Shown: positions 4,322 to 56,777, counted from the stretch's first letter. The stretch: DNA of 58,499 bases from an uncultured bacterium (GCA_965369445.1 CBDUQU010000002.1:1-58499), one strand, 5' to 3'. Notes: generated from the letters alone by a model not told the origin. Made by a program: numbers and translations.

Positions 4322-4690
4322 CTAACCGAAGTGCTTCATTATCCTTCCTCGATCTTCATTCTCTTTGTCAGCCTTGTAGTAGATCTCGATTAGGACAACC
4401 TTGTCCTCTTTTTCGTAATAGCCATAGATCAGCCTGATGCCGGATTTAGCGCCTTTCCCCTTGAGTGAGCGGCAGGCGAACTTGAGTACCTTGTATACCT
4501 TTGGGGTTTCTATGTCCAAATCGGAGATTCGGACCGTTCCACCGGTTTCCTTTCCTAATTTGTGATAGAGCTTCAACTGGTTTCCGATACAAATATCCAG
4601 ATCATCTTCAAGGGTCTTGTATCGTTTCAGAAGTCTCTTCATGTCCCGCTCGAATTCAGGGAGACGCAAGATCTCACTAAATATCTTCAT
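4322..4690 (-). CDS. RelE/ParE-superfamily-like toxin (putative PanT)
   Basis: 122 aa with a helical N-terminus followed by GIRLIYGYYEKEDKVVLIEIYYKADKEN, a RelE/ParE-type beta-sheet signature. It overlaps the upstream antitoxin gene by 14 nt. Confidence 0.55.
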   Translation of the reverse strand: MKIFSEILRLPEFERDMKRLLKRYKTLEDDLDICIGNQLKLYHKLGKETGGTVRISDLDIETPKVYKVLKFACRSLKGKGAKSGIRLIYGYYEKEDKVVLIEIYYKADKENEDRGRIMKHFG

Positions 4691-16000: not shown

Positions 16001-16139
16001 GCGTCAAACCCCCGGTACCAAGAAGGTCAGCTGGGACGGAAAGGATGAGAGAGGAGAGGACGTGACCAGCGGCGTTTACTTCTATAAGCTGAAAGCAGGT
16101 GCCAGCGTGCACTCCAAGAAGATGTTGCTGCTGAAGTAA
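13077..16139 (+). CDS. Large surface protein with four tandem cohesin-like modules, an unknown middle domain and a T9SS (Por) C-terminal sorting domain
   Basis: Signal peptide. Four modules of about 147 aa (LEVPVYF.Q..GVYYFRVEVEYD..KLEF...). C-terminal NYPNPFN...VYNVLGERVRTLVD...SGVYFYKL is typical of T9SS/FlgD-Ig-like sorting domains. Confidence 0.75.
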   Translation: MKLKKIFYLLVAALLFCPFAAGSAETFEVVVEDSILAYAGQPDLEVPVYFEQSDGVYYFRVEVEYDPSKLEFLYASTGRFGSVNAHTNFCGPGFLHVFAFAGGDGCAEPGSEPAFYIHFAVDGGVSEETVIPLTFNDPFCYSLQAVVNGCAPSYPTYIPTYDFGSVYIPPVPEFEFAISENIPAYPGQPDLEVPVYFDQGAGVYYFRVEVEYDASKLEFLSVSGGRFTSFNAHTDFCGPGFLHVFGFAGGAEDCTQPGSEPAFYIHFRVDGSVPGGTTIPLIFNDPFCYSLQAVVNGCAPEYPAYSATYDFGSVYVEALPEFEVIIADNISAYPGQSDLEVPVYLDQGVGVNYFRVELEYDPNQLQYRFAEAGRFGILNAHTDFCGPGFLHVFLTAGAEGCIQPGSEPAFYVHFKVQDTVSVGNVIPLVFNNPFCYSLQAVVNGCAPDYFAYIPTYDFGSVFVDHRGVKFTLPDNVLTYAGSNARLPVYVHNEEGLIYFRVDMAYDPDKLIYQSVEDARFAVTNTLFCGDDPAHVSVFSTNGHCILADPDYPGGVGFYITFKVQSGVPVGTVIPITFTDTTCNLILTLANGCEPMYSTFLPEWDHGSIKVKSQPSPGCPFVFAWTGERFEKDNTILTQSEDPYRSELSVTDHLLLRQKPALVQDEYRLQIREFEQEVSYLDNLELIVVDHALGTEVAVSPDGEIHLYENEIAPLSCTDHNGVDQLDKIREKDGVFYTCDQAGHLVLTLKQEVNSEGLPSFVVSGVGPRPPPKNIPKTAGSPEPSMLKIEIQAKDGSWIELSDLPPRDSPQKSFCFIDPQYVDENGEMKIRISWTGFYSADEISYFLVSSEKPELYRNLPVRASHSASARVLSRLEQEDGEFVVLSPGEKIELVFLSPGNPKPDVARDFVLRSRGYYVQQHKTGAPSLPSVCQLLDNYPNPFNMETIISYVLSQEANVQLRVYNVLGERVRTLVDERQTPGTKKVSWDGKDERGEDVTSGVYFYKLKAGASVHSKKMLLLK
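13155..14907 (+). repeat. Intragenic tandem repeat, 4 units of about 438-444 bp
   Basis: Units start at 13155, 13596, 14040 and 14478. Units 1-3 are highly similar at the nucleotide level; unit 4 is diverged. Confidence 0.8.
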
Positions 16140-42546: not shown

Positions 42547-44676
42547 ATGGAGAAGCCAATGTTAAGATTGTCTTTGTGTTCAATGTTGATTCTAACCGGG
42601 AGTCTTATTGTGGGTTCGTGCGATAGTCAGGTGGAGCTTAAGCCGCCGAAGGCGAAGATCGAGGCGAAGGTGGATACCTTATTTGGCCGGGAGATGGTGG
42701 ACAACTACTTTTGGCTGCGGGAGCGGGATAATCCCGAGGTTATGGATTATCTGAAAGCGGAGAATGCGCACACCAAAGCGGTGATGAAACACACGGAGAA
42801 GCTTCAGACAAGGCTGTATGAGGAGATGGTGTCCCGCATCAAGGAGACCGATCTCTCCGTGCCGGTGAAACGCGATAATTACTACTACTATTACCGAACC
42901 GAGGAGGGCAAGCAGTACCGGATATATTGCCGCAAGAAGGGAAGCCTTGAGGCGGAAGAGGAGATATTGCTTGACGTCAACCAACTTGCCGAGGGGAAGG
43001 ACTACATGTATCTGGGAGTCTACGAGGTCAGTCCTGATCACAACCTGCTGGCCTTTGGGATTGATACCACGGGAAGCGAGCGCTATACGTTACGGGTGAA
43101 GAACCTCGAGACCGGCGAAGTCTATCCGGACGTCATTGACAGCGTCTCGACCTCGTTTGAATGGGCCAATGATAATCAAACGTTTTTCTACACCATAATG
43201 GATGAAGCCTGGCGGCCGTTTAAGCTTTTCCGTCACACGCTGGGCGACGAGGTTGAGAACGACGTGTTGGTTTTCCACGAGAAGGATGATGCTTTCTTCT
43301 TGGGCATCCAGAAATCCAAGAGCATGGACTATCTTTTTATTCAACTGGGGAGCATGAACACCACAGAGGTGCATTATCTCGATGCCGGCAAGCCCACGGG
43401 CAAATTCGAGCTGGTGCATCCCCGGCAGCAAGACATGGAATACGAGCTGTCCCATCATGGCGATCACTTCTATATCGTCACCAATGACAATGCCAAAAAC
43501 TTCAAGCTAATGCGGGCGCCGGTGTCGAACCCGTCAAAGAAAAACTGGAAAGAGGTGATCCCCCACCGCGATTCTGTCAAGCTGGACCGCATCGAGGTCT
43601 TCAGGGATTTCATGGTCCTCTATGAGCGGGAGAACGGCTTAAAGCAGATGAGGATCAAGGACTTCACTACCGACGAGATTCACACGGTCGAGTTTCCTGA
43701 GCCAGTGTACACCTTCTGGCAGGCGTGGAACCCTGACTTTAAGGGACGGCTTTTGCGTTTTCACTACACCTCTTTCATTACCCCCGAGTCGGTCTACGAC
43801 TACGACATGAAAACTAAGGAGCGGGAGCTGAAGAAGCAAACGGAGGTGCTGGGCGGGTATGATCCTGAGTTGTACCAGTCGGAGCGGATATTCGCCACAG
43901 CAGATGACGGCAGCAGGATTCCGATCTCGATGGTCTACAAGAAGGGTATGGTTAAGGACGGCAATAGCCCGCTCTACCTTTATGGATATGGCGCCTACGG
44001 TGCCAGCGTGGAGCCTTACTTCTCCTCGAACCGCTTGAGCCTTCTGGATCGGGGATTCATTTACGCCAGGGCTCACGTCCGTGGTGGAGGGGAGATGGGC
44101 CGGTACTGGTATGACGATGGGAAGCTGCTTTTCAAAAAGAACACCTTTACCGACTTTATCACCGCCTGTGAGCATCTGATTGCGGAGAAGTACACATCCT
44201 CCGAAAGATTAATCATCAGCGGTGTCAGTGCCGGAGGTCTATTGATCGGCTCGGTGGTCAACATGCGGCCGGAGTTGTTCAAGATTGTCATTGCCGACGT
44301 GCCGTTCGTGGACCTGATCAACACCATGCTTGATCCCAGCATTCCGCTCACGGTCATCGAGTATGAAGAGTGGGGTAATCCGAATAAGAAGGAATATTTC
44401 GACTACATGCTATCCTATTCGCCATACGATAACGTCGAGGCTGAGGATTATCCCAACATGCTCATTCTGGCCAGCTTAAACGATACCCGGGTGCAGTACT
44501 GGGAATCAGCCAAATGGACCGCCAAGTTGAGGGCGAAAAAGACCGACAGCAACCGCCTTCTGCTTAAGACCATCATGGGAGCGGGCCACGGCGGCGTGTC
44601 GGGGCGGTACGACCAGCTTAAGGAACTGGCGTTCGAATACGCCTTTGTTTTAGATGTTCTGGGATGGAAAGAATAA
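42547..44676 (+). CDS. ptrB: Oligopeptidase B / S9A prolyl oligopeptidase family serine protease (lipoprotein)
   Basis: Lipobox VGSC, N-terminal beta-propeller region, catalytic GVSAGGLL, D...GAGHGG. Confidence 0.85.
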   Translation: MEKPMLRLSLCSMLILTGSLIVGSCDSQVELKPPKAKIEAKVDTLFGREMVDNYFWLRERDNPEVMDYLKAENAHTKAVMKHTEKLQTRLYEEMVSRIKETDLSVPVKRDNYYYYYRTEEGKQYRIYCRKKGSLEAEEEILLDVNQLAEGKDYMYLGVYEVSPDHNLLAFGIDTTGSERYTLRVKNLETGEVYPDVIDSVSTSFEWANDNQTFFYTIMDEAWRPFKLFRHTLGDEVENDVLVFHEKDDAFFLGIQKSKSMDYLFIQLGSMNTTEVHYLDAGKPTGKFELVHPRQQDMEYELSHHGDHFYIVTNDNAKNFKLMRAPVSNPSKKNWKEVIPHRDSVKLDRIEVFRDFMVLYERENGLKQMRIKDFTTDEIHTVEFPEPVYTFWQAWNPDFKGRLLRFHYTSFITPESVYDYDMKTKERELKKQTEVLGGYDPELYQSERIFATADDGSRIPISMVYKKGMVKDGNSPLYLYGYGAYGASVEPYFSSNRLSLLDRGFIYARAHVRGGGEMGRYWYDDGKLLFKKNTFTDFITACEHLIAEKYTSSERLIISGVSAGGLLIGSVVNMRPELFKIVIADVPFVDLINTMLDPSIPLTVIEYEEWGNPNKKEYFDYMLSYSPYDNVEAEDYPNMLILASLNDTRVQYWESAKWTAKLRAKKTDSNRLLLKTIMGAGHGGVSGRYDQLKELAFEYAFVLDVLGWKE

Positions 44677-44894
44677 ATAGCGCGTCAGGTGCTTGGAATC
44701 AGACCACACCGCGGTAAGCGTGCGGTCTCTTGGTTCGTGACGGTCAGACGACCGCCCCCATACAGGCCCGTCTGGGCGTCCGTTACCAACGCAGGTATCA
44801 TCCTCTTCTGATACTTTAGGATATACCCGGTCTGTTAAGCAGACCGGGCCACCCAGCCCCATGTCCGGGTCTTTTCAAAAAGTTAAAAATGTGC

Positions 44895-44922
44895 TTGAGT
44901 TGTGGCGACGATTAATTATATT
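44895..44922 (+). promoter_or_regulatory. Putative promoter of the redox operon
   Basis: TTGAGT, 16-nt spacer, TATATT, 60 nt upstream of 44985. Confidence 0.3.
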
Positions 44923-44984
44923 GTGCAACGTGGCAAATGAGTTCGGATGGACCAGATATCTAATCATTTCAGAACAGGGAGTAG

Positions 44985-45542
44985 ATGAAGATGCCTGAAT
45001 GCCAACACCAGTGGGAGATGACGAATATTCAGTTTGGCTTCGTAGTTTTCGAGAAGTGCTTTCACTGCAACGACCTGAGAACTTACTTTTCCGTTGAGGA
45101 CAATCCCATCCTGGGGGACAAGTACCGGGAGGGTGACCATTACTGGAGCCGGGTGGAAAACGCCCAGACCTTCACCTTTGACCTGAAGTGCACGCAATGC
45201 AACCATACAGAGAAGTTCAACGACCTGATGGGACTCTTGCACTGCACCGGATGCCTGCCCGACTGCGAGGTGGAGATCATGCGGAAGAAGTTGGAAGCCG
45301 AAAAGACCTGGATCGTGGTGGCGTTCGGATTTCTTCCCCAGGCAAAGACCGAACCGATCCCACCGCACAAGTTAGATATGCTTACCGACTACTTCAACCA
45401 GAGGAGAGATACCTCCCGCTCCAGGATCAAGGTGGTCCCGTTCAATCTGATCGATGATCTTGCTCGCTGCAAAGGCGACTTCATTCACGACGTGGGCATG
45501 CTTTCCCTGGAACCGCCACCGGGCAGAAAATCTCCATTTTGA
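44985..45542 (+). CDS. Hypothetical protein with two zinc-ribbon-like Cys pairs
   Basis: C6...CFHC and CTQC...CTGC..DC spacing. First gene of the DRTGG/hydrogenase-like cluster. No family recognised. Confidence 0.5.
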   Translation: MKMPECQHQWEMTNIQFGFVVFEKCFHCNDLRTYFSVEDNPILGDKYREGDHYWSRVENAQTFTFDLKCTQCNHTEKFNDLMGLLHCTGCLPDCEVEIMRKKLEAEKTWIVVAFGFLPQAKTEPIPPHKLDMLTDYFNQRRDTSRSRIKVVPFNLIDDLARCKGDFIHDVGMLSLEPPPGRKSPF

Positions 45543-45587
45543 TCGTAACGTTAGCTCAAGCTAAAAAAATCAAGCAGGAGAAATTTC

Positions 45588-45923
45588 ATGACCACCCAAG
45601 ACTTGATTGAGAAGCTCGGACTGAAAGCTTTAAGCAAGTTTGAACACCGGGACGTGGATGGTGTTTTCGTCTCGGATATGTTAAGTGACGTCATGGCCGG
45701 CGCCAAATCCGGCAACCTGTGGCTCACCATCCAGACCCATAAAAGCATCGTGCCAGCGGCCAACTTAGTGGACGTTTCCGCCGTGATCATCACCAGCGGC
45801 AAGGAGGTTCCGCAGGAGACCGTGGACCTGGCCAGCAAGTATGATATCGCCATCCTCTCCAGCGACCTGGCCACCTTCGAGCTGGTGGGAAAGCTGTACG
45901 GGTTGGGTCTGGGAAGCAAGTAG
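45588..45923 (+). CDS. DRTGG domain protein
   Basis: VSDMLSDVMAGAKSGNLWLTIQTHKSIV...AVIITSGKEV...ILSSDLATFELVGKLYGLGL matches stand-alone DRTGG proteins found next to hydABC-type operons. Confidence 0.8.
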   Translation: MTTQDLIEKLGLKALSKFEHRDVDGVFVSDMLSDVMAGAKSGNLWLTIQTHKSIVPAANLVDVSAVIITSGKEVPQETVDLASKYDIAILSSDLATFELVGKLYGLGLGSK

Positions 45924-46030
45924 CTGGATTCAATGTCGGTTAGACGTGTTCTCAGGCGGGTCCAAACCAAGGGAGCCGCCGGATGGTTCATGCCATGGTC
46001 AGAAGCGGGACAGGGGTCGTGGAGATAAGA

Positions 46031-46816
46031 ATGATCAAAGACGTGCTGCAGGCCACCGTGATCGAGGGCGAAGACAAACTCGACACCGCGGTCGAGCGGG
46101 TGTATGCTTCTGATCTGATGAGCGACGTCTTGGCCTTCGGCAGGTCCAATTCCATTCTGTTTACCGGGCTGGCAAGCCAGCAGGCGGTCATCTCCGCCCA
46201 CATGGCAGAATTCAAAGGAGTTGTGTTCGTACGGGGCAAGATGCCTAAGGATGGCTCGAAGGAGTTCGCCAGAGAGAACGACCTGGTTCTGCTCTCCACC
46301 GAGCTGGACATGTACGATGCCTGCGTGAGGATAGAGTCGGTCAGGAGGGGAAATGACGCAGGCTTGAAAGCCAGACCGGCCGGCGAAAGATCCGAGAAGA
46401 TGCTCCTGGGCCATGAGTTCTTCATTGAAGGAAGCGATTTCGCCAACGCGGGGATGGCATCCACCAAGGTGAAGTCCATTCTCAAGAAAATCGGATTCGA
46501 TCCCAAGCTGGTGCGGAGGGTTGCCATCTCCACCTACGAGGGGGAGATGAACGTGGTGATGCATGCCCAGAGGGCCAAGGTCAAACTGGCGGTCACTTCC
46601 GGGCTGATCGAGGTGGTAATCGACGACGAAGGCAAGGGCATCCCGGACGTGGATCTGGCCATGCAGAAGGGATATACCACCGCCACCGAGGAGATGAGAG
46701 CCATGGGATTCGGTTCGGGAATGGGACTGCCCAACATAAAGAAGAATTCGGACGAATTGGATATCAAAAGTGAGGTGGGAAAGGGAACCACACTGCGGAT
46801 GAGGTTTTATACCTAA
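46031..46816 (+). CDS. DRTGG domain fused to an RsbW/SpoIIAB-like Ser/Thr kinase (HATPase_c)
   Basis: N-terminal ASDLMSDVLAFGRSNSILFTGLASQQ. C-terminal VVIDDEGKGIPD...GFGSGMGLPN...GKGTTLRMRF (N, G1 and G2 boxes). The ATG at 46031 with a GGAG SD. Confidence 0.75.
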   Translation: MIKDVLQATVIEGEDKLDTAVERVYASDLMSDVLAFGRSNSILFTGLASQQAVISAHMAEFKGVVFVRGKMPKDGSKEFARENDLVLLSTELDMYDACVRIESVRRGNDAGLKARPAGERSEKMLLGHEFFIEGSDFANAGMASTKVKSILKKIGFDPKLVRRVAISTYEGEMNVVMHAQRAKVKLAVTSGLIEVVIDDEGKGIPDVDLAMQKGYTTATEEMRAMGFGSGMGLPNIKKNSDELDIKSEVGKGTTLRMRFYT

Positions 46817-46849
46817 AGAACTCGTCTTTAAAAGGAGCGGAAAGGCAAA

Positions 46850-48115
46850 TTGGCGCAGTATTACCATGCTCATAAAGTAGTCTTGGACAAGTGTCGCGGA
46901 CACATGACCTGTATGCGTCACTGTCCTACCCAGGCCATTCGGGTAAGGGGAGGCAAAGCGGTCATATCCGAGGAACTGTGCGTCGATTGCGGCACCTGCA
47001 TCTCGGTGTGTCCTGCGGGAGCCATTGTCCCGATTACCGATGCGGTGGCGGAAATCTCTCATCTCAAATATAAGGTGGTAGTACCTTCGCCGGTGCTCTA
47101 TTCCCAGTTCGAATCCAACGTCCATCCATACATCATTCACCTAGCTTTCAAGAAGCTCGGTTTCGACGAGGTGGTGGACGTGGGCGCCTCATCGGCAGCA
47201 CTGGCCCGGACCCTGGTGAAGCATATGGAAAAATACCAGGGCCGGCTTCCCCTCATATCCTCTCACTGTCCTTCCGCGCTCAGGCTGATCCAGGTGAAGT
47301 ACCCTGACTTGGTCGAGCTGGTGATTCCGCTGGACGTGCCCAGGGAGGTGACCGCACGTGAGGTTAGAAAAAGTCTGCCGGCCAAACTGGGACTCAAGCC
47401 GGAGGATATCGGGATAATCTATGTAGCTCCCTGCCCGGCAAAGATCGTCTCTATCAAGCAGCCGGCTGAAAAGGCCAGATCCTGGTTCGACGGAGTGGTC
47501 TCCATTCAGGATGTCTATTCTATTCTGCTGCCCCAGGTCGTGGCCATAAAGGAGACCTTCAAGGAGAGCCAGGTGCCGGACGATTTCGCCTTCAATGCGG
47601 GTTGGGCCACGTTGGGAGGCATGGTCAGGGCGGTGCAGACGGAGAACTGGCTGGCCGTCTCGGGATCGGATCACGTGAAGATGATCTTAGACGATATCGA
47701 GAATTCGCGGCTGCGGAACGTCGATTTCGTGGAAGTCTTAGCCTGCATGTTGGGCTGCATCGGCGGAAGCCTCAACGTGGAGAACCCCTATGTGGCCCGA
47801 ACCAACAGCATAAAGCAAAGAGCCAGGTATGAAGACCGCATAAAAGTCGATGATGAGGATATCGACCGAAAGCTCAAAGAAGGGTACTATTTCCTGGAAA
47901 ATCCGATTCTGCCTCGTCCCACCAAATACTTCGACACCGACTTGGAGACCTCCATTAAGAGAATGAAGGAAAGGGAGAGGGTCTACCAGAAGCTTCGCCA
48001 GACCGACTGCGGGTGCTGCGGAGCACCCACCTGTATGGCCTTTGCCGAGGATTTCGTCAGGGGAGAGGTGGAACTTACCGATTGTATCTTCCTGGCACAG
48101 AAGGGTGAGGAATGA
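46850..48115 (+). CDS. [FeFe]-hydrogenase-like protein with a non-canonical H-cluster domain, putative sensory type
   Basis: TTG start. Fe-S motifs CRGHMTCMRHCP (CxxHxxCxxxCP) and CVDCGTCISVCP. H-domain-like motifs SSHCP, APCPAK and EVLACMLGCIGG. C-terminal CGCCGAPTC...C Fe-S motif. Confidence 0.7.
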   Translation: MAQYYHAHKVVLDKCRGHMTCMRHCPTQAIRVRGGKAVISEELCVDCGTCISVCPAGAIVPITDAVAEISHLKYKVVVPSPVLYSQFESNVHPYIIHLAFKKLGFDEVVDVGASSAALARTLVKHMEKYQGRLPLISSHCPSALRLIQVKYPDLVELVIPLDVPREVTAREVRKSLPAKLGLKPEDIGIIYVAPCPAKIVSIKQPAEKARSWFDGVVSIQDVYSILLPQVVAIKETFKESQVPDDFAFNAGWATLGGMVRAVQTENWLAVSGSDHVKMILDDIENSRLRNVDFVEVLACMLGCIGGSLNVENPYVARTNSIKQRARYEDRIKVDDEDIDRKLKEGYYFLENPILPRPTKYFDTDLETSIKRMKERERVYQKLRQTDCGCCGAPTCMAFAEDFVRGEVELTDCIFLAQKGEE

Positions 48116-48609
48116 CGAAAAAGCGGACCGTTCGGAAGAGGAGCGCAGGCGGCTCAAAGACGGCGGAGCGTTACGCCCGCATATTCTCCGAGTTCAGAGG
48201 CGACGAGGGCGACCTGATTCCCATCCTGCAGAAGACTCAGGAGAAGTTTGGATTCATCCCTAAAGAGGCGGTTAATCGCATCTCGCGATACTTAAAGATC
48301 TCGGAAAACCAGATCTACGGCGTGGCTTCGTTCTATTCACAGTTTCGCTTCACCGCGCCGGGCAGAAACTCGATCAAGGTCTGTTTAGGGACAGCCTGTC
48401 ACGTGCAGGGAGGGCAGATCCTGTGCGAGGCGGTGGAGAGGGAGCTCGACCTCAAGCCGGGTGAGACGACCGCAGACAGGCGATACGACTTGGAGAGAGT
48501 AGCTTGTCTGGGATGCTGCGCCCTGGCGCCGGTGATTCAGATCAACGAAGACATTTACAGCCGGATGACGGTGATTCGGTTGAAAGAAATCTTGGGCAAA
48601 TATGAGTGA
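48112..48609 (+). CDS. nuoE: NuoE/HydC-like [2Fe-2S] thioredoxin-fold subunit
   Basis: CLGTACHVQG...CLGCCALAP cluster motif. ATGA overlap with the upstream stop. Confidence 0.85.
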   Translation: MTKKRTVRKRSAGGSKTAERYARIFSEFRGDEGDLIPILQKTQEKFGFIPKEAVNRISRYLKISENQIYGVASFYSQFRFTAPGRNSIKVCLGTACHVQGGQILCEAVERELDLKPGETTADRRYDLERVACLGCCALAPVIQINEDIYSRMTVIRLKEILGKYE

Positions 48610-50506
48610 TTTCGAGAAGAAAAGAAAACAGGCTCAGAAGAAATGGGATCTGCTCAAGAGCAGTAAGATCCCGGTAATCTACCTGGGCACCGCTTCCTGC
48701 GGCAGGGCTGCCGGCGCTATGGAGGTCCTTGGGTCCGTCCGGGAGACTTTGAAAAAGAACCGGCTGAAAGCCAAGATCGTCCAGGTGGGGTGCATCGGAC
48801 CCTGTTACTTGGAACCGCTGATGGACATAGCGGTGCCGGGCCAGCCGCGAATAAGCTACGCCAATATGAACCAGCATAAGGCCAAGCGAGTGATAGAATC
48901 CTACCTGAAGAAAGGTGACCCGTTCCTACAGTTCGCTGTGGGGCATTTCGGAGAGAAGGAGTGGCAGTCGGGCAACGGGATTCCCAGGTTCTTCGACCTT
49001 CCCATGCTTAAGCCCCAGGTGAGGGTGGTGCTTAGAAACTGCGGGTTTATCGATCCGGAGGAGATCGACCACTACATAGCCACCAAGGGATACGAAGGCA
49101 TCATGAATGCCTTCAGGAAAGGCCCCCGGGCGGTAATCGAGGAGGTTAAGGAGGCCGGGCTCCGCGGAAGGGGGGGAGCGGGATTTCCCACCTACAAGAA
49201 GTGGGAGATATGCCGGAGCGCTCCAGGTGAGACGAAATATATGATCTGCAATGCTGATGAGGGGGATCCGGGGGCATTCATGAACCGGTCCCTGATTGAA
49301 GGCGATCCACACTCGGTTCTTGAAGGGATGCTGATTGCCGCATATGCCATCGGCGCTTCGCTCGGGTACATTTATATAAGGGCGGAATATCCCCTGGCCA
49401 TCGCTCGTCTGAGAAAAGCCATTGCCCAAATGACCGATTACGGCTTCTTGGGCAAGAACATTCAGAACTCAGGCTTCGACTTTGACATCAACATAAAGGA
49501 AGGGGCGGGTGCCTTCGTCTGCGGTGAGGAGACCGCGCTTATAGGTTCTATTGAAGGTAAACGCGGCATGCCCAGATCCCGACCGCCGTTTCCTGCAGTG
49601 TCGGGCCTGAACGGAAAGCCTACCATCATCAATAACGTGGAGACTCTGGGAACCCTTCCCAATATCCTGAGAAACGGGGCGGGATGGTACAAACAGTACG
49701 GCACCCAGGGGAACCATGGCACCAAGACCTTTTCCCTGGTGGGAAAGATACGCCGTTCGGGCTTAATCGAGGTGCCGCTGGGAATGACGCTGAGGAAGAT
49801 CATATTCGACATAGGGGGCGGTTCGGCAAAACCCTTCAAGGCGGTTCAGACAGGTGGTCCCTCCGGGGGATGTCTCTCCGAGGAATTCTTAGACACGCCC
49901 ATAGATTATGAATCCCTGGACGCGGCCGGTTCCATTATGGGATCCGGGGGTCTGATCGTGATGGACGAGGACACCTGTGTGGTGGACCTGGCCCGCTATT
50001 TCCTCGACTTCACCCAGAAGGAATCCTGCGGCAAATGCTCTCCCTGCCGGGTGGGGAGCAGGCATATGGTGGAGATCTTAGAGAGGATCACCAGGGGAGA
50101 AGGAGAGCCGGAAGATCTGCCAAAGCTTAAGGCCTTAGGGGAAACGATGAAAAGAGGCTCGCTCTGTGGCCTGGGCCAGACCGCTCCTAATCCGGTTCTG
50201 ACCACCCTGCGCTACTTCCGGCCGGAGTATCTCTTGCACGTCAAGGAGAAGCACTGTCCGGCCACTGTGTGCAACGAGCTTATCGAATACCGGGTGATCC
50301 CGGAGAAATGTACCGGATGCCAGCGCTGCGTGAATGTCTGTCCCACCGGCGCCATAACCGGACCCAGGGCGGAACCACACAACCTGGATCCGTCCAAGTG
50401 CATCAAGTGCCGAGCCTGCTATGAGATCTGCCGCTTCGACGCCATAGCTGGCGACGCCATTATCATCAGATCCAAACGGAGAACCTCTGATGAGCAAACG
50501 GAGTGA
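48602..50506 (+). CDS. nuoF: NuoF/HydB-like NAD(H)- and FMN-binding flavoprotein with extra Fe-S domains
   Basis: GRGGAGFPTYKKWE and CGKCSPCRVG (N3-type). C-terminal CTGCQRCVNVCP and CIKCRACYEICR. N-terminal thioredoxin-like [2Fe-2S] region. Confidence 0.9.
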   Translation: MSDFEKKRKQAQKKWDLLKSSKIPVIYLGTASCGRAAGAMEVLGSVRETLKKNRLKAKIVQVGCIGPCYLEPLMDIAVPGQPRISYANMNQHKAKRVIESYLKKGDPFLQFAVGHFGEKEWQSGNGIPRFFDLPMLKPQVRVVLRNCGFIDPEEIDHYIATKGYEGIMNAFRKGPRAVIEEVKEAGLRGRGGAGFPTYKKWEICRSAPGETKYMICNADEGDPGAFMNRSLIEGDPHSVLEGMLIAAYAIGASLGYIYIRAEYPLAIARLRKAIAQMTDYGFLGKNIQNSGFDFDINIKEGAGAFVCGEETALIGSIEGKRGMPRSRPPFPAVSGLNGKPTIINNVETLGTLPNILRNGAGWYKQYGTQGNHGTKTFSLVGKIRRSGLIEVPLGMTLRKIIFDIGGGSAKPFKAVQTGGPSGGCLSEEFLDTPIDYESLDAAGSIMGSGGLIVMDEDTCVVDLARYFLDFTQKESCGKCSPCRVGSRHMVEILERITRGEGEPEDLPKLKALGETMKRGSLCGLGQTAPNPVLTTLRYFRPEYLLHVKEKHCPATVCNELIEYRVIPEKCTGCQRCVNVCPTGAITGPRAEPHNLDPSKCIKCRACYEICRFDAIAGDAIIIRSKRRTSDEQTE

Positions 50507-53018
50507 GACCGTTAGCATAAACATCGATAATTCGCCCTTTGAAGTAGAAAAAGGGCTGACCATCCTTGAGGCTGCAGAGTTAAACGACATCTACATCCCC
50601 ACGCTGTGTGCCCATAAGGATCTGACACCCTTTGGAGGCTGCCGGATGTGCATTGTGGAGGTGGAGGGGATGCGGGGCCTGCCCACCTCCTGTACCACGC
50701 CGGTAGAGGAGGGGATGATCATAAGAACTCACACCGCTCAGGTTCAGGCGGAGAGGAAGGAGATTCTGCAACTGATCTTAAGCGAACATACCTCCAGCTG
50801 CCTGATCTGCGAGGAGAGCGACGAGTGCAAGGAATACATGGGCACCGTCCGCAAGGCCGGCGTGACCACGGGATGCCGGTACTGTCCCAACGACGGAAAG
50901 TGCGAGCTGCAGGACGTGGTGGAGAAGATGGAGATCAAGGAGATCGGCTACCCGGTCTACTACCGTGGGCTGCGGGTGGAAAAGGATGATCCCTTTTATG
51001 ACCGGGACTATAACCTGTGCATCCTATGCGGAAGATGCATCCGGATGTGCCAGGAGATTCGCACGGCCAACACCTTGGCTTTCAAGCAAAGGGGACGTTA
51101 CACGGTGATCGGTCCGGCTTACGAACGGACTCACCTGGAGGCTGGCTGCGAATTCTGCGGAGCCTGCGTGTCGGTTTGCCCCACCGGAGCTCTCTCAGAG
51201 AAGGTCAGTAAATGGGAGGGAAAACCGGATCGGGAACAGACAACTACCTGTCCCTTCTGCGGGGTGGGATGCCAGATTCGATTGCAGGTAAAAGGGACCG
51301 AGATCATCGGCAGCCTGCCGGAGCAGGACACTCTGATAAATAATGGACAGCTTTGCGTGAAAGGGAGGTTCTGCGTTGCCGAGGTGGTGAACAACCACCG
51401 GCGCTTGAGGCGGTCCTACAGAACCCAGAACAATACCAGGGTGGAGCTCTCCTGGGAGGAGGCCGTCGAGTTAACGGTCGAGAGGCTTTCAGCCTGCTCG
51501 GGCGAAGACTTTAGTATGCTGGTCTCGCCGAACTGTTCTAACGAAGATTTGTACGTCGCTCAGAAATTTGCCAGGGTTGTGATGGGCTCACATGATATCG
51601 ATACTTCTTCAAGAACATTCTACGCAGCCAGCCTCAATGCCTACCTTAACCTCACGCAGATGGCTGTCACACTATCCGACCTTCGGAAAGCTTCGGTCAT
51701 CCTGTGCCTGGGGCTGGATACCAGGTTCAGCCGATCGGTGGTGGGTGTGGAGCTGCGAAAAGCGATCGCAAGGGGAGCGAAGGTTGTGACCATTAACCCG
51801 CGCCATCACAGCCTCTCGGTGATCGCGGAGAAGTGGATTCAGCCAGCTTTCGGCACGGAACTCAGTCTGTTTGATTACCTTGTGAAGTTGACCCAGAAGA
51901 AGGCGAAGCCTTCGCGGGCCGGCTCGAAGGCAGCCGTAAAAAGCCTCGATGGTGAGTTGTCAGAGGTGGCCGAAATGCTGAAAGAGGCCTCTGCTTGCGT
52001 GATCCTGGTGGGTTCGGAGTTTCTGCAGTGTGACGAAAGCCCGCGAATTCTTGAGTGCGTCGAGAAGATAGCGCAAAATGTGGGCGCCGGAGTTCTTCCG
52101 TTGCCGGCTCAGAACAACCTTTTCGGTTCCATTCTCATGGGGACGTACCCCGAACTCCTGCCAGGCGGACTCTCCTCCGGAAAGAGGAAGATGATCGAAG
52201 AGCTGAAGAGAAAATGGCGGGCGGACGTACCCTATTTCACTTCTCGAATGAGCCGAGAGATCTTTGCGCCCAAGAAGAGACTAAAAGTGCTTTACCTGGT
52301 GGGAGAGGTTCCGGCAGATACTCTTCCTGAGTCTGAGTTCCTGATCGTCCAGAACATGTATCCCCCTGATCCCTGGCATGCAGCTGATCTGGCCCTGCCG
52401 ACGGCCTCCTTCGCGGAGGTGGACGGGACGTTCATCAATGGAGAGGGACGAGTCCAGCGGGTTCGAAAGGCGGTAGATCCTCCGGGTGAGGCCCTGCCCG
52501 ACTGGGAGATACTCTGCCGGATCGCCCGGAAGATGGGGAAGAAGGGTTTTGATTTCTCCAGCGCGCGCAAGGTTCATAAGGAGATATCCAGCCTGGTGAG
52601 AAGATTCGGGAACTTTGACAAGCCCTCTCGTAAAGCCACCCCGTTGACATGCGAAGTAGAGTTGTTCATCCCCAAGGCTAAGTCCAGAAGGATGAAGAAA
52701 ACAGACAAGAGGTTTCCGTTTCTTCTTAACACTTCGATGATTGAGCACACGTACCGCGGTTTCCCGCTGTCGACCTGGGTGGAGGGAGCAAGGGTGCTGT
52801 TTCCCGAAGGGGTTCTGCATGTGAACTCAGCGGATGCTAAGAAAACCAGGATATCCGAGGGTGATGAGGCAGTGGTAACCTCGGCTGATTTCGAGAGGAC
52901 GTGGCCTGTTAGAATCGTCAGCGAACAGCCGGAAGGGACGCTGCACGTGACGCTGCATCAGGGTGAATCGGTTGGACCTAACCCTCATCGGGTGAGAATA
53001 AGGAAGAAGAATGTTTAA
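50490..53018 (+). CDS. NuoG-like Fe-S subunit fused to a formate-dehydrogenase-like molybdopterin domain lacking the catalytic Cys/Sec
   Basis: [2Fe-2S] CAHK..GGCRMC, His-ligated HTSSCLICEESDEC, two ferredoxin motifs, then TCPFCGVGCQI...LCVKGRF. At the position of FdhF CARVUH it reads SSRTFY. Confidence 0.8.
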   Translation: MSKRSETVSINIDNSPFEVEKGLTILEAAELNDIYIPTLCAHKDLTPFGGCRMCIVEVEGMRGLPTSCTTPVEEGMIIRTHTAQVQAERKEILQLILSEHTSSCLICEESDECKEYMGTVRKAGVTTGCRYCPNDGKCELQDVVEKMEIKEIGYPVYYRGLRVEKDDPFYDRDYNLCILCGRCIRMCQEIRTANTLAFKQRGRYTVIGPAYERTHLEAGCEFCGACVSVCPTGALSEKVSKWEGKPDREQTTTCPFCGVGCQIRLQVKGTEIIGSLPEQDTLINNGQLCVKGRFCVAEVVNNHRRLRRSYRTQNNTRVELSWEEAVELTVERLSACSGEDFSMLVSPNCSNEDLYVAQKFARVVMGSHDIDTSSRTFYAASLNAYLNLTQMAVTLSDLRKASVILCLGLDTRFSRSVVGVELRKAIARGAKVVTINPRHHSLSVIAEKWIQPAFGTELSLFDYLVKLTQKKAKPSRAGSKAAVKSLDGELSEVAEMLKEASACVILVGSEFLQCDESPRILECVEKIAQNVGAGVLPLPAQNNLFGSILMGTYPELLPGGLSSGKRKMIEELKRKWRADVPYFTSRMSREIFAPKKRLKVLYLVGEVPADTLPESEFLIVQNMYPPDPWHAADLALPTASFAEVDGTFINGEGRVQRVRKAVDPPGEALPDWEILCRIARKMGKKGFDFSSARKVHKEISSLVRRFGNFDKPSRKATPLTCEVELFIPKAKSRRMKKTDKRFPFLLNTSMIEHTYRGFPLSTWVEGARVLFPEGVLHVNSADAKKTRISEGDEAVVTSADFERTWPVRIVSEQPEGTLHVTLHQGESVGPNPHRVRIRKKNV

Positions 53019-53853
53019 GCTGATCGAAAACCGGATGATTGTGCCTAATATGCACCTGCTGACGCTGGAGGCACCGGAGGTTGTCCGCCAGATGCAGCCG
53101 GGGCAGTTCGTGATCGTGCGAGCCGATGATGGAGGCGAGAGAATACCTCTCTCCATCGCTGACTGGGATGCAGAAGAAGGAACAGTTACCGTCATCGTGA
53201 TGAACATAGGAAGCACCACCGACCGTCTGGCATCACTTACTGCCGGAGTGAGCCTCCCCACCGTGGTGGGGCCATTGGGCAATCCAACGGAGATCGAAAA
53301 GTTCGGCACGGTCCTCTGTCTCGGTGGATGTTACGGGATCGGGAGCATCTTCCCCATCGCCCGGGCGCTGAAGGAGAAAGGGAACAAAGTTATCACGGTC
53401 ATCGAGGCCAGAAGCTCATATCTTCTCTTCTGGGAGGAGAGGCTAAAAGAAGTCTCCGACGAGCTCATCTGCATCACCCGGGACGGGACGAAGGGACACA
53501 AAGGACACGTGGGAAGGCTCACCGAGATCATAAAATCGTCTGACAAGCCGGTCGATCGGATCATCGTCAACGGCTGCACCTTCCTTTTGAAGAGAGGGTC
53601 GGACATGAGCCGGCCGCTGGAGATAAAGACGATAGTCAGCTTGAATCCGATTATGATCGACGGCACGGGAATGTGTGGGGTATGCCGGGTCACGGTGGGA
53701 AAGACCACCAGATTCGCCTGCGTGCACGGCCCGGACTTTGACGGACATGAGGTGGATTGGAAGGAGCTTTTGCAGCGGCGTAAGACTTACATGCGCGAAG
53801 AAGTGATTCCGCTGAGGACAAGCCGGTGTGAACAACACCGTGTCAAATTGTAG
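53011..53853 (+). CDS. nfnA: NfnA/SudB-type FAD/NAD(P)-binding [2Fe-2S] subunit (PyrK-like)
   Basis: QPGQFVIVR, ERIPLSIAD, GGCYGIGSIFPIARAL, and C-terminal GMCGVCRV...FACVHGPDF. Confidence 0.85.
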   Translation: MFKLIENRMIVPNMHLLTLEAPEVVRQMQPGQFVIVRADDGGERIPLSIADWDAEEGTVTVIVMNIGSTTDRLASLTAGVSLPTVVGPLGNPTEIEKFGTVLCLGGCYGIGSIFPIARALKEKGNKVITVIEARSSYLLFWEERLKEVSDELICITRDGTKGHKGHVGRLTEIIKSSDKPVDRIIVNGCTFLLKRGSDMSRPLEIKTIVSLNPIMIDGTGMCGVCRVTVGKTTRFACVHGPDFDGHEVDWKELLQRRKTYMREEVIPLRTSRCEQHRVKL

Positions 53854-53854
53854 T

Positions 53855-55267
53855 ATGCCTGTTATGCCAAAGCCGCAGAAGAAGAAATTGGATTTGAACA
53901 GAAGGGATATGCCCAAGCAGCCGCCTGAGGTGAGGAGGCATAATTTCAACGAGGTGGCGTTGGGTTATACTCCGGAAACTGCAATCGAGGAAGCCAAGCG
54001 ATGCCTGCAGTGCAAAAAGCCCAAGTGTGTCGCTCAGTGCCCGGTGGAGATAGACATTCCCGGGTTCATCAAGTGCATTGCAGAAGGAGACTTCGCCACA
54101 GGAACCAGGATACTAAAGGATAAAAACTGTCTACCCGCGATGTGCGGCCGGGTCTGCCCCCAGGAGGAGCAGTGCGAAGAGGTATGCGTTCTGGTTAAGA
54201 AAGGTGGGCAGATCGCGGTGGGCAGGCTGGAGCGGTTCCTGGCAGACTGGGAGGGAGAGCAAAGCGAGCCTGAGACGCCGAAGATGCCGCGATCAACCGG
54301 AAGAAAGGTCGGTGTCGTGGGAGGAGGACCTGCCGGACTCACCGTGGCCAGTGATCTGATAAAATTGGGACACCAGGTGACCATCTTCGAGGCGCTGCAT
54401 GAGGTGGGAGGGGTGCTAATCTATGGCATCCCGGAGTTCAGGCTTCCCAAGGTCATCGTGCACCGGGAGGTTGAGTATCTCCAGAAGCTGGGTGTGGATG
54501 TGGTGACCGACTATGTTGTCGGCAAGACCAGAAGCGTGGACAGTCTTTTGGAGGAATATGACGCCATGTTCATCGGCTCGGGCGCCGGGCTTCCCTGGTT
54601 TATGGACGTTCCCGGTGAGAATCTAAACGGCGTCTACTCGGCCAACGAATACCTCACCAGGATGAACCTGATGAAGGGTTTCCTCTTCCCCGACTACCAC
54701 ACTCCCGTCAAGGAGCACAAGAGGGTTGCGGTGATGGGGGGTGGGAACGTGGCCATGGACTGCGCCAGAACCGCTCTAAGGCTGGGGGCAGAGGCCAGGA
54801 TCATCTACCGAAGATCCAGACAGGAACTGCCGGCGCGCTTGGAAGAGATAGAGAATGCTGAGGAGGAGGGGGTGATCTTCGATTTCCTGACTCTTCCCAT
54901 CAAGTATATCGGGGATGAGAATGGGTGGTTGAAGGAGATCGAATGCCTGAAGATGAAGCTGGGTGAACCGGATGACTCCGGAAGAAGACGACCTGTTCCC
55001 ATAGAAGGTTCTGAATATAGAGTCCCCATGGACGCGGTGGTATGCGCCATCGGCAACAGCCCCAACCCCCTGGTTCCCGCCGCCACTCCCGGACTGGAGG
55101 TGGGCAAGAGGGGAAACATCGTGGCGGACGAGGAGACCGGCAAGACCTCCCGGGATCGAATCTGGGCTGGCGGCGACGTGGTCACCGGAGCCGCAACTGT
55201 TATCCAAGCCATGGGCGCCGGGAGAAAAGCTGCCAGATCTATCCACGAGTATCTCTGCTCTCTCTAA
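53855..55267 (+). CDS. nfnB: NfnB/SudA/GltD-type NADPH-dependent oxidoreductase, glutamate synthase small-subunit-like
   Basis: CLQCKKPKCVAQCP, GRVCPQEEQCEEVC, VGVVGGGPAGL, VAVMGGGNVAMD. The ATG at 53855 lies just after the nfnA stop. The ORF track starts at 53828. Confidence 0.85.
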   Translation: MPVMPKPQKKKLDLNRRDMPKQPPEVRRHNFNEVALGYTPETAIEEAKRCLQCKKPKCVAQCPVEIDIPGFIKCIAEGDFATGTRILKDKNCLPAMCGRVCPQEEQCEEVCVLVKKGGQIAVGRLERFLADWEGEQSEPETPKMPRSTGRKVGVVGGGPAGLTVASDLIKLGHQVTIFEALHEVGGVLIYGIPEFRLPKVIVHREVEYLQKLGVDVVTDYVVGKTRSVDSLLEEYDAMFIGSGAGLPWFMDVPGENLNGVYSANEYLTRMNLMKGFLFPDYHTPVKEHKRVAVMGGGNVAMDCARTALRLGAEARIIYRRSRQELPARLEEIENAEEEGVIFDFLTLPIKYIGDENGWLKEIECLKMKLGEPDDSGRRRPVPIEGSEYRVPMDAVVCAIGNSPNPLVPAATPGLEVGKRGNIVADEETGKTSRDRIWAGGDVVTGAATVIQAMGAGRKAARSIHEYLCSL

Positions 55268-55352
55268 ATAAATCCCATACAATTCACTGTTCTCCGACGC
55301 TTGCGAGAGACGAGTCTGTCTGGTCCGCTCCAGACTCAAAAGATCAAGCGCC

Positions 55353-55381
55353 TTGACACACACCCGCCGCTGGCTTATTTT
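55353..55381 (+). promoter_or_regulatory. Putative promoter of the MFS gene
   Basis: TTGACA, 17-nt spacer, TATTTT. Confidence 0.3.
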
Positions 55382-55475
55382 ACGCCGGTGAGTTAGAAGC
55401 TGTGATGCCTGCCGTCGATGCGGAAGCTATTGGTGCCGCACAACTTTTTCACCTTTCTTTGAGTATATACAGATT

Positions 55476-56777
55476 GTGAAGAGAAATTCTACGGATCTCG
55501 GAATCACGCGAAAAGCGGTTAACGTTGTTATCGATTATTGGGGACATCTAAAGCTCTTCTCCAGGAATGCCCGGCTGTTTCTGGTCGGCATCTTCTTCGT
55601 GGGGTTGAACTGGGCCATCTTCATGTTGCTTCTGAATCTATATTTTAAAGAACTCGGCTTCACCGAAGATCTGATCGGAGAGGTTTTGTCTGCCACCGCT
55701 TGGGGAATGGCCATTATTTCGGTGCCAGCTGCCTTGCTCATTCCCAGACTTTCGATAAAAAAAATCTTGGTCTACTCGGTGTTCTTTGTCGGGTTTTTTT
55801 CCATTCTGCAGGCAACGGTGGTGGAACGAACGCCGCTTCTTGTGGTGAGCCTTATTCTTGGAATGGCCCGGAGTATTACCTGGGTGACGGCAGCTCCTTT
55901 CATGATGCGAAACAGTACCCCCAAGGAGAGAACCTATCTTTTCAGCTTGAATTTCGGCACCTATCTTGTAGCAGCGATAGTCGGGAGCGTGGCCGGTGGT
56001 TACCTGCCGGATTTATTCTCGCATTTCGCAGCCTCCAAAGCAATCGCTTTCCGGTATTCTCTTTACGTATCTGTGTTCCTTGGCGTCTTGGCTTTGATCC
56101 CGTTTCTTATGATGGCGCGGGAGAAAAAGGCCGAAGAAAAGTCTCGAGATAAAAAGGGATGGGACCGGAGGCTGTTGAAAGAGAGGGGAACTCTGCTTCT
56201 CAGGCTCTGTCTTCCTTATTTTATCGTAGGTATGGGGGCTGGCTTTGTCATTCCATTCCTGAATCTCTACTTCAGAGATCGGTTTCATCAGCCAGCCGGA
56301 ACCATCGGGATATATTTCGCCCTGGTGCAGTTCTTTATGCTGGGAGGAATATTGATCGGACCCCTTTTGTCCAAGAGATTCGGGATGATCAGAACTGTCG
56401 TCTCCACTCAGCTTGCCTCTATCCCCTTTATGCTGATTCTGGCGTTCTCCTACTATTTGCCGCTGGCGGTGGGGGCTTTTCTGTTCCGCGGCGCGCTGAT
56501 GAACATGGGGCAGCCCATTGCCACAAACTTCGCTATGGAGAAAGTAAAGGAGAAGGAACAGGCCCTGACCAACGCTTTGTTGATGCTCTCCTGGACCGGC
56601 TCCTGGGCCATAACCACCAACTTAGGGGGGAGGCTGATAAAGGCCTATGCTTTTACCCCGCCACTCCTTATCACGGTCGGGCTTTACGTTCTCTCCAGCA
56701 TTCTCTACTATATCTTCTTCTCCTCGGAAGAGGACAGGAAAATGGGGAAAGCAATTTTGCCTTTAAGGGAGACATAG
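55476..56777 (+). CDS. MFS transporter
   Basis: About 12 TM segments in a 6+6 arrangement with a central basic loop (REKKAEEKSRDKKGWDRR). GTG start. Confidence 0.8.
   Translation: MKRNSTDLGITRKAVNVVIDYWGHLKLFSRNARLFLVGIFFVGLNWAIFMLLLNLYFKELGFTEDLIGEVLSATAWGMAIISVPAALLIPRLSIKKILVYSVFFVGFFSILQATVVERTPLLVVSLILGMARSITWVTAAPFMMRNSTPKERTYLFSLNFGTYLVAAIVGSVAGGYLPDLFSHFAASKAIAFRYSLYVSVFLGVLALIPFLMMAREKKAEEKSRDKKGWDRRLLKERGTLLLRLCLPYFIVGMGAGFVIPFLNLYFRDRFHQPAGTIGIYFALVQFFMLGGILIGPLLSKRFGMIRTVVSTQLASIPFMLILAFSYYLPLAVGAFLFRGALMNMGQPIATNFAMEKVKEKEQALTNALLMLSWTGSWAITTNLGGRLIKAYAFTPPLLITVGLYVLSSILYYIFFSSEEDRKMGKAILPLRET

Follow-up and report, generated by a model that had tools for sequence, protein, structure and literature searches.

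The window analyzed here, 58,499 nt of DNA from an uncultured bacterium (GCA_965369445.1 CBDUQU010000002.1:1-58499), carries at positions 48112-55267 of the plus strand five closely packed genes in the order NuoE-like, NuoF-like, NuoG/formate dehydrogenase (FDH)-like (842 aa), NfnA and NfnB. We judge it somewhat better than an even chance (a probability of about 0.55) that their products assemble into a single enzyme with several subunits, a member of the Bfu (HydABC-like) family, with the first three products corresponding to BfuC, BfuB and BfuA, respectively. This reading, built on sequence comparison, is favored because of the loss of the FDH active site from BfuA, the conserved gene order, gene fusions, correlated divergence of the subunits, the presence of a dedicated NfnA, a core of the Nfn-Bfu type and expression of the genes. 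The predicted enzyme would catalyze an NADP(H) transhydrogenation of the Nfn/Stn type that depends on ferredoxin and NAD(H), and would in effect be an unfused relative of Stn/NfnABC that has retained an NfnA subunit. Close homologs belong to Candidatus Zixiibacteriota, and DNA of the window was found in marine-sediment and cold-seep metagenomes.

Linkage of the five genes

The five genes lie at the downstream end of a run of nine open reading frames (ORFs) on the plus strand (44985-55267), with intergenic gaps of no more than 59 nt. A preliminary description of this DNA, made from the sequence alone, had reported that all five genes overlap or abut, and the ORFs and junction sequences agree with it: the stop codon of the hydrogenase-like gene overlaps the NuoE-like start in an ATGA (48112-48115), the next three junctions are overlaps of 8 nt (48602-48609), 17 nt (50490-50506) and 8 nt (53011-53018), and a 1-nt gap separates the end of nfnA at 53853 from the ATG of nfnB at 53855; nfnB could also start from a GTG at 53828. 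Since the ATGA ties the hydrogenase-like gene to the NuoE-like gene, translational coupling would reach beyond the five genes. The domain assignments of all five proteins were upheld by Pfam and NCBIfam (Table 1). Tight junctions, either overlaps or gaps of a few nt and including the one between BfuA and nfnA, recur in most of approximately 70 related loci from other phyla, indicating that they are not random.

To place the window in a wider context, one genome per species was scanned, yielding 80 loci onto which the window proteins were placed by tblastn. Inactive-type BfuA (at least 38% identity to the window protein) with at least 2.5 kb of downstream sequence was present in 58 of these loci, and nfnA and nfnB directly followed it in 57, representing at least 12 phyla. 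In the remaining locus (L023) the BfuA gene is broken off at its 3' end by a string of N, an assembly gap, and the locus is not a true exception. The NuoE-NuoF-BfuA-NfnA-NfnB order was found in Zixibacteria, Ignavibacteria, Latescibacterota, Gemmatimonadota, Planctomycetota/Phycisphaerae, Acidobacteriota/Aminicenantes, Anaerolineae, Actinomycetes, Eisenbacteria and WOR-3, as well as in Desulfobacterota (Desulfomonilaceae and Syntrophorhabdus, including the isolate S. aromaticivorans UI). Three loci are permuted so that NuoE-NuoF is placed after the sensor genes described below, with the BfuA-NfnA-NfnB block intact.

The association of BfuA with NfnA extends to gene fusion. In two Acidobacteriota genomes the two proteins form a single polypeptide of 1138-1140 aa with a linker of approximately 40 residues, and the protein database contains six clusters of such fusions, which come independently from JGI, NCBI and ENA and are 57-84% identical to one another and 1131-1153 aa in overall length; one of the fusions sits in a locus (L082) whose NfnB also carries a fused DRTGG domain. 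In another locus (L049) BfuB and BfuA seemed to be fused as well, but this was an artefact of ORF extension, as a stop codon is present. Comparison of pairwise-distance matrices across 42 complete operons gave correlations of 0.93 for BfuA-NfnA, 0.88 for NfnA-NfnB and 0.87 for NuoE-NuoF, and of 0.54 for BfuA-NuoF. The evidence thus favors a contact between BfuA and NfnA, as predicted from these sequence relationships, and by their synteny, fusions and correlated divergence the five genes behave as one conserved unit, in support of the five-subunit combination suggested earlier, for which a neighborhood survey had been recommended. Finally, contigs from marine-sediment metatranscriptomes that are 95-99% identical to the window cover parts of the BfuC, BfuB, BfuA and NfnA genes.

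Sequence features of the subunits

BfuA is predicted from alignment and modelling to be an FdsA fold minus its catalytic residues. Its Pfam domains are Fer2_4, NADH-G_4Fe-4S_3, Fer4_Nqo3, Molybdop_Fe4S4 and Molybdopterin, and its top solved-structure matches (phmmer) are alpha subunits of NAD-dependent FDHs (9wxb_B and 6tg9_A). When BfuA is aligned by phmmer with FdsA of Rhodobacter capsulatus (6tg9_A), however, SSRTFYAAS stands opposite CARVCHSPT, which replaces Cys386-His387 with F377-Y378, and PLPAQNN stands opposite PLRGQNN, which puts P539 in the place of the catalytic Arg587. The absence of the catalytic Cys/Sec and His from the third subunit, as noted in the preliminary description, was therefore upheld, and P539 adds a third catalytic loss to those two. 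An AlphaFold2 model of BfuA built with 45 homologs (mean predicted local distance difference test score 76.8, predicted template-modelling score 0.74) is confident across the molybdopterin-fold part and uncertain only in the cluster regions, which depend on cofactors, and Foldseek searches with this model again ranked FdsA-type FDHs at the top. That rank, and the name "formate dehydrogenase alpha subunit" given to several BfuA homologs in public records, could be taken to mean that the operon encodes an ordinary NAD-dependent (or bifurcating) FDH acting through an alternative catalytic residue. Such an enzyme is nevertheless extremely improbable, given F377, Y378 and P539, the loss of the Cys/Sec-His pair and the Arg in every BfuA homolog of at least 38% identity, the retention of CARLC(U)H and the Arg by more distant relatives, and the inactive, pterin-free state of the homologous FDH-like domain in the Stn and NfnABC structures (PMC10482914, PMC11829005).

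All ligand residues of the N-terminal cluster domains of BfuA are invariant among its homologs. Following the His-cluster motif is an extra half-copy (Table 1), and both CxxCx5C copies map onto the same residues of T. kivui HydA1; their seven ligand residues are invariant in 45 homologs (40-85% identity), and the second half-copy is not in FdsA. C129, C132 and C138 may hold an extra cluster that takes electrons from NfnAB. Since the part of Caldicellulosiruptor saccharolyticus NfnA that follows its NfnB-like insert (residue 568 onward) aligns from BfuA residue 132, the duplication would lie near the insertion point of the Stn type, a coincidence that is only suggestive. The half-motif was also considered as the exact point of NfnB-domain insertion, which was only partly supported: a Stn-like protein of Chloroflexi (L066:10666-13320) is an FDH-type BfuA whose 2x[4Fe-4S] ferredoxin domain is interrupted by the NfnB/GltD-like domain, an insertion point unlike that of Stn. 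The ORF of this protein halts at an in-frame TGA right after DHCARL, possibly encoding selenocysteine.

BfuB and BfuC are predicted to form a bifurcating core of the Nfn-Bfu type. The top solved match of BfuC is Thermococcus sibiricus NfnC (9n5u_C, 7e-46), and those of BfuB are T. sibiricus NfnB (9n5u_B, 4e-226), C. saccharolyticus NfnB (9bov_B) and StnB (8oh5_B); Nfn-Bfu cores thus rank above the HydB subunits of hydrogenases, with complex I and FdsB far lower. Matches of BfuB to PF01512, PF10589 and two copies of PF00037 are clear, and that to SLBB is weak (E=0.0026). BfuB carries the B1, B3 and B4 cysteines, the C552/C557/H546 site ahead of its C-terminal ferredoxin domain and GGPSGG (residues 418-423), and none of these Cys and His residues varies among 42 homologs. 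The C-terminal clusters and the GGPSG loop are among the features that separate bifurcating from non-bifurcating homologs (Schut et al. 2022, PMC9304861; Xiao et al. 2025, PMC12018979), and BfuA, BfuB and BfuC all show the sequence hallmarks by which Schut et al. 2022 defined the Bfu family. In three loci (L005, L016 and L030) the NuoE and NuoF proteins are 42-58% identical to those of the window, compared to 58-82% for BfuA, NfnA and NfnB, which suggests that the BfuBC pair has been swapped among operons.

The NfnA of the operon appears from its sequence to be a specialized paralogue, belonging to a separate subfamily with an altered nucleotide-binding loop. It matches Pyrococcus furiosus NfnS (5jca_S) at 1e-79, and retains the Asp/Cys3 [2Fe-2S] motif, DGTGMCGxCR...FAC. 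The dinucleotide-binding loop, however, reads xGC(Y/F)G(I/L)(G/A) in 69 of 72 Bfu-linked NfnA proteins and GGG(V/I)Gx(A/P) in 119 of 120 ordinary ones, including that of Moorella thermoacetica (P0357), and the ordinary GGG(V/I)G loop agrees with the solved Thermotoga maritima and P. furiosus subunits. Linked NfnA also mostly has (A/S)DW(D/N), which is ADWD in the window, where ordinary NfnA has ADxD, and Pfam NAD_binding_1 was not detected in the window NfnA, unlike in many ordinary NfnA proteins. It follows that the earlier premise that NfnAB alone is bifurcating is not simply transferable to this operon. A second NfnA-only copy of the ordinary type occurs within two Syntrophorhabdaceae loci (L060 and L081). 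In addition, a Zixibacteriota genome (L083:261-2548) encodes an ordinary NfnAB with the GGGVG loop directly upstream of yceD, rpmF and plsX-fabH-fabD-fabG-acpP-fabF, a location that fits NADPH supply for lipid synthesis. NfnA proteins of both kinds end in short Cys/His-rich tails (PLRTSRCEQH at 53812-53853 of the window, GGGCGCH in the Moorella protein P0357, and also P0285), for which we know of no described function; a C-terminal Cys-x2-His tail was considered as a signature of an inter-subunit ligand and dropped because ordinary NfnA proteins also end in this way.

NfnB, with Fer4_20 and Pyr_redox_2 domains, matches T. maritima NfnB (4ylf_B) at 1e-176 and keeps both cluster motifs as well as GIPEFRLPK (residues 191-199), which contains the Arg that tunes the bifurcating flavin adenine dinucleotide (FAD).

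Table 1. Genes and sequence elements of the operon and its upstream cassette, in window coordinates.
Feature	Position	Strand	Basis
Cys-rich protein, family unassigned, 185 aa, first cassette gene	44985..45542	+	homolog immediately before the DRTGG gene at most related loci
DRTGG-domain protein, 111 aa	45588..45923	+	PF07085 DRTGG, E=9.7e-6; Hpr_kinase_N; co-occurs with the operon
DRTGG + GHKL ATPase (SpoIIAB/RsbW-like kinase fold), 277 aa	45983..46816	+	PF13581/PF02518 plus DRTGG
HydS-like (putative sensory-type) [FeFe]-hydrogenase-like protein, 421 aa	46850..48115	+	2x[4Fe-4S], Fe_hyd_lg_C, PF04060 FeS
BfuC (NuoE/HydC-like, [2Fe-2S] thioredoxin-like), 165 aa	48112..48609	+	PF01257, 1e-47
BfuB (NuoF/HydB-like, flavin mononucleotide (FMN)/NAD(H) site, predicted bifurcating type), 634 aa	48602..50506	+	Complex1_51K, NADH_4Fe-4S, two C-terminal Fer4
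BfuA (NuoG-type clusters and FdsA-like molybdopterin-fold domain, catalytic residues absent), 842 aa	50490..53018	+	Pfam
His-cluster motif H100-x3-C-x2-C-x5-C113, then extra half-copy C129-x2-C132-x5-C138-ELQ	50787..50903	+	alignment
F377-Y378, site of the Mo-ligand Cys/Sec and catalytic His in FDHs	51618..51623	+	alignment to 6tg9_A
P539, site of the catalytic Arg (R587, R. capsulatus FdsA)	52104..52106	+	PLPAQNN opposite PLRGQNN
NfnA/NfnS paralogue (FAD, [2Fe-2S]), Bfu-linked subfamily, 280 aa	53011..53853	+	NF004862, 2e-104
GGCYGIG, dinucleotide-binding loop of NfnA	53323..53343	+	comparison with linked and ordinary NfnA
NfnB/NfnL (NADP(H), FAD, two [4Fe-4S]), 470 aa from ATG	53855..55267	+	TIGR01316, 6e-176

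The upstream putative sensor cassette and other genes of the window

Preceding the five genes are four genes that the preliminary description regarded as a sensor cassette, an assignment that is in agreement with the HydS-like motifs of the 421-aa protein, its GHKL ATPase neighbor and a histidine-kinase fusion in a related locus. The 421-aa protein retains the four H-cluster Cys residues and the Lys (SSHCP, APCPAK, ACMLGC), whereas its proton-relay Cys is replaced by His and Glu by Ser. Retained H-cluster ligands, an altered proton pathway and linkage to signalling domains are the marks of the HydS type, and the protein is putatively sensory rather than catalytic. In Syntrophorhabdaceae (L081:12808-16820), directly downstream of nfnB, one gene joins a HydS-like module to HisKA-HATPase, and genes for a response regulator and a hybrid kinase come next. 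The 277-aa protein matches the anti-sigma F factor model TIGR01925 at 7e-16, under the cutoff of that model, and the 185-aa Cys-rich protein has no match in Pfam or NCBIfam. A homolog of this Cys-rich protein precedes the DRTGG gene across phyla, at most of the related loci.

The Cys-rich, DRTGG, DRTGG-GHKL ATPase and HydS-like proteins would sense H2 or the redox state and would probably control the enzyme. In one locus (L082:12405-14153, the context of P0153) NfnB has a C-terminal DRTGG domain, for a total of 582 aa, and is followed by a stand-alone GHKL ATPase gene and a HydS-like gene, which suggests that the "sensor" proteins bind the enzyme itself; this fusion and the ATGA coupling are a hint that the cassette may act on the enzyme directly. 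A quite different role for the hydrogenase-like protein (46850-48115) would be that of a catalytic subunit, with H2 oxidation or production taking the place of formate oxidation. The kept H-cluster cysteines and Lys, the overlap of its stop with the NuoE-like start, its presence with most inactive-type loci and the precedent of separate H-cluster subunits in the Hyt/Fdh complex (PMC9304861) are all compatible with an H2-dependent enzyme. Nevertheless, we regard this as very improbable, since the proton-relay residues are replaced, the gene is always paired with the DRTGG and GHKL ATPase genes and varies in position, it was not found in the fetched flanks of the Anaerolineae loci, and the histidine-kinase fusion and response regulators of Syntrophorhabdaceae mark a sensor.

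Elsewhere in the window are two large cohesin-domain proteins (11083-12684 and 13077-16139). A dockerin domain is also present in the first, and the second has a C-terminal sorting domain for type IX secretion; such proteins are unusual outside cellulosome-forming Firmicutes. On the minus strand, 4677-5471 encodes a protein with a helix-turn-helix and a SocA/Panacea antitoxin-like domain.

Relation to known enzymes and predicted electron flow

The Bfu family and its four types were defined by Schut et al. 2022, one of them being Nfn-Bfu (Stn/NfnABC), in which an NfnB-like domain lies inside BfuA (PMC9304861). The Stn/NfnABC enzymes of Sporomusa ovata, C. saccharolyticus and T. sibiricus share with the operon a NuoE/NuoF-like core of the bifurcating type, a large subunit with NuoG-type clusters and an inactive FDH-like domain, and an NfnB/GltD-like FAD module for NADP(H) (PMC10482914, PMC11829005, PMC12018979). 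They differ from it in three respects. First, their NfnB-like domain is inserted in BfuA, whereas the operon encodes NfnB as a separate, essentially canonical protein, and Pyr_redox and Fer4_20 domains were not found by Pfam in the 842-aa BfuA. Second, Stn has no NfnA homolog (PMC10482914), whereas the specialized NfnA accompanies the operon in all 57 intact loci. Third, the BfuA of the operon has the duplicated CxxCx5C half-motif near the Stn-type insertion site.

Other known enzymes resemble parts of the operon. NfnAB/NfnSL of T. maritima, P. furiosus and M. thermoacetica has the same NfnB motifs and NfnA [2Fe-2S] motif, but its NfnA has the ordinary loop. The operon NfnA always has its gene after one for BfuA and sometimes forms a single polypeptide with BfuA. 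SfrAB of Geobacter sulfurreducens, to our knowledge, has neither a NuoE/NuoF-like core nor an NfnA. Coppi et al. 2007 reportedly purified SfrAB as a soluble enzyme whose GltD/NfnB-like subunit binds NADPH. Like the operon, SfrAB combines a NuoG/FDH-like subunit with a separate GltD/NfnB-like subunit, and Kremp et al. 2020 listed it as such a NuoG-like and GltD-like pair (PMC7483475). FdsABG and Fdh-Bfu have the three-gene core layout and provide the top sequence and fold match for BfuA, but they differ from the operon in that its BfuA is without the catalytic Cys/Sec, His and Arg, and FdsB is without the C-terminal clusters of the bifurcating-type BfuB (PMC9304861). The Bam-Bfu benzoyl-CoA reductase has been proposed to couple, within one complex, a BfuABC module to a second bifurcating module (HdrA), although this second module, the substrates and the subunit set differ from those of the operon (PMC9304861). 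A full-text literature search, which left most subscription journals (e.g., the Syntrophorhabdus genome paper) outside its reach, found no description of BfuABC and a separate NfnAB as one enzyme. The claim of the preliminary description that the architecture has not been characterized thus stands insofar as no paper was found, yet the operon is nearer to Stn/NfnABC and SfrAB than was supposed there. Its novelty lies in having NfnB encoded on its own and NfnA in addition, since an inactive FDH-like domain, fused with an NfnB-like one in a single subunit, is already known from Stn/NfnABC.

If the five proteins form one enzyme, BfuB and BfuC would provide the FMN/iron-sulfur bifurcating core for NAD(H) and ferredoxin, and BfuA, which is without the residues for formate oxidation, would act as an electron wire and scaffold. 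The separately encoded NfnB would supply the NADP(H) site and would be held on BfuA together with the specialized NfnA, which would couple the two. The physical complex, the electron path and the stoichiometry are inferred; a path from NfnB to BfuA is possible by analogy with the Stn structures, and a Stn-like path would imply 2 NADPH : 1 NADH : 1 ferredoxin (2 e-).

Several observations weigh against a single enzyme. NfnB is approximately 65-67% identical to stand-alone NfnB and retains the Arg of GIPEFRLPK, and no Bfu-specific signature was found in it, the linked set having one near-invariant residue that differs from a canonical Zixibacteriota NfnB; with so canonical-looking an NfnB, NfnAB could work alone. 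NfnA would be superfluous if the complex performed only the Stn reaction, and the simple model gives no reason for its strict conservation. Shared operon inheritance accounts for part of the correlated divergence. No transcript contig spanned any gene junction in three metatranscriptome runs, in which the matching contigs were at most 300 nt, and these contigs show expression only, not co-transcription; a promoter and terminator scan of 44500-55700 gave only background, with counts equal to those of shuffled sequence. Finally, NfnAB is also found downstream in Dehalococcoidia relatives, including D. mccartyi, that keep the full Cys-His-Arg set, and in Nitrospirota relatives that keep the Cys and have lost the Arg. 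Because FDH-intact relatives have NfnAB as well, the linkage is older than the loss of the active site, and it may first have served metabolic coupling. From these sequences, an NADP(H) module probably joined a formate-oxidizing Bfu enzyme whose formate site was lost afterwards. In a metagenome-assembled genome of Dehalococcoides mccartyi (L073:8001-12170), a BfuA homolog with CARLCH and NPLRGQNN is followed after approximately 640 nt by nfnA of the Bfu-linked type and nfnB.

The operon could instead encode two enzymes, an ordinary, self-sufficient NfnAB and an oxidoreductase of the BfuABC kind for NADH and ferredoxin, whose only link would be the soluble pools of these two carriers. In such an arrangement the Bfu enzyme would yield NADH and reduced ferredoxin 1:1 and NfnAB would use both 1:1. 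In favor of it, NfnA keeps its [2Fe-2S] motif, and NfnB looks canonical and keeps GIPEFRLPK. In the FDH-intact relatives, conversion of formate to NADH and reduced ferredoxin and thence to NADPH is sensible as the work of two enzymes, and Matheus Carnevali et al. 2019 interpreted nuoE/nuoF/fdhA beside nfn in Margulisbacteria and Saganbacteria as a real FDH and a separate Nfn (PMC6349859). We nevertheless consider two enzymes unlikely for the operon of the window. A BfuABC of the inactive type would be left with no third substrate, and alone it would only dissipate the energy of ferredoxin. Further, BfuA-NfnA fusions occur and none of the 57 intact loci breaks the linkage, the NfnA so linked is a separate paralogue, a related Zixibacteriota genome has its ordinary NfnAB at another site, and the divergence of BfuA tracks that of NfnA more closely than that of BfuB.

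Within a single enzyme, bifurcation could also occur in two stages, with the NfnB FAD and the BfuBC flavin/cluster site in series through BfuA and a non-canonical stoichiometry. At physiological potentials of -280 mV for NADH, -380 mV for NADPH and -500 mV for ferredoxin (PMC9304861), feeding of BfuA by the low-potential branch of NfnB would give approximately 4 NADPH : 3 NADH : 1 ferredoxin (2 e-), with ferredoxin at equilibrium near -680 mV, and feeding by the NfnA branch would give approximately 4 NADPH : 1 NADH : 3 ferredoxin, with equilibrium near -413 mV. Both modules carry the sequence hallmarks of bifurcation, NfnA is strictly kept even though Stn needs none, and the altered NfnA loop, the BfuA fusions and the correlation of 0.93 suggest that BfuA is wired to the Nfn chain at its NfnA end; serial bifurcating modules have also been proposed for the Bam-Bfu complex (PMC9304861). 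The case is nonetheless made from sequence and thermodynamic book-keeping, the homologous FAD in Stn is non-bifurcating despite the Arg in its sequence (PMC10482914, PMC12018979), and neither stoichiometry answers to an identified physiological need, so that two-stage bifurcation appears distinctly improbable. The related proposal that the NfnB FAD and the BfuBC FMN/cluster site act serially via NfnA and BfuA (4:1:3 or 4:3:1, not 2:1:1) and that the operon is an unfused evolutionary link between NfnSL and NfnABC is doubtful, if slightly less so.

The operon bears on the annotation of anaerobe genomes and on the relationship between the two kinds of Nfn. Proteins of the BfuA type commonly bear the name "formate dehydrogenase alpha subunit", and formate metabolism has been inferred from them (PMC6349859) without support from their sequences. 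NfnSL and NfnABC/Stn have been portrayed as two unrelated solutions to one reaction, almost mutually exclusive in acetogen genomes, as described by Kremp et al. 2020, and alternatives in Thermococcaceae (PMC7483475, PMC9304861, PMC12018979). Here both types are united in one conserved operon that is present in at least 12 mostly uncultured anaerobic phyla from sediments and digesters. If the serial scheme were true, NADPH would be equilibrated with a ferredoxin pool of very different potential (approximately -413 or -680 mV). If the five proteins form one complex, the Bfu family would gain a new subunit arrangement, a natural unfused intermediate for tracing the origin of Stn and a test case for two bifurcation sites in series.

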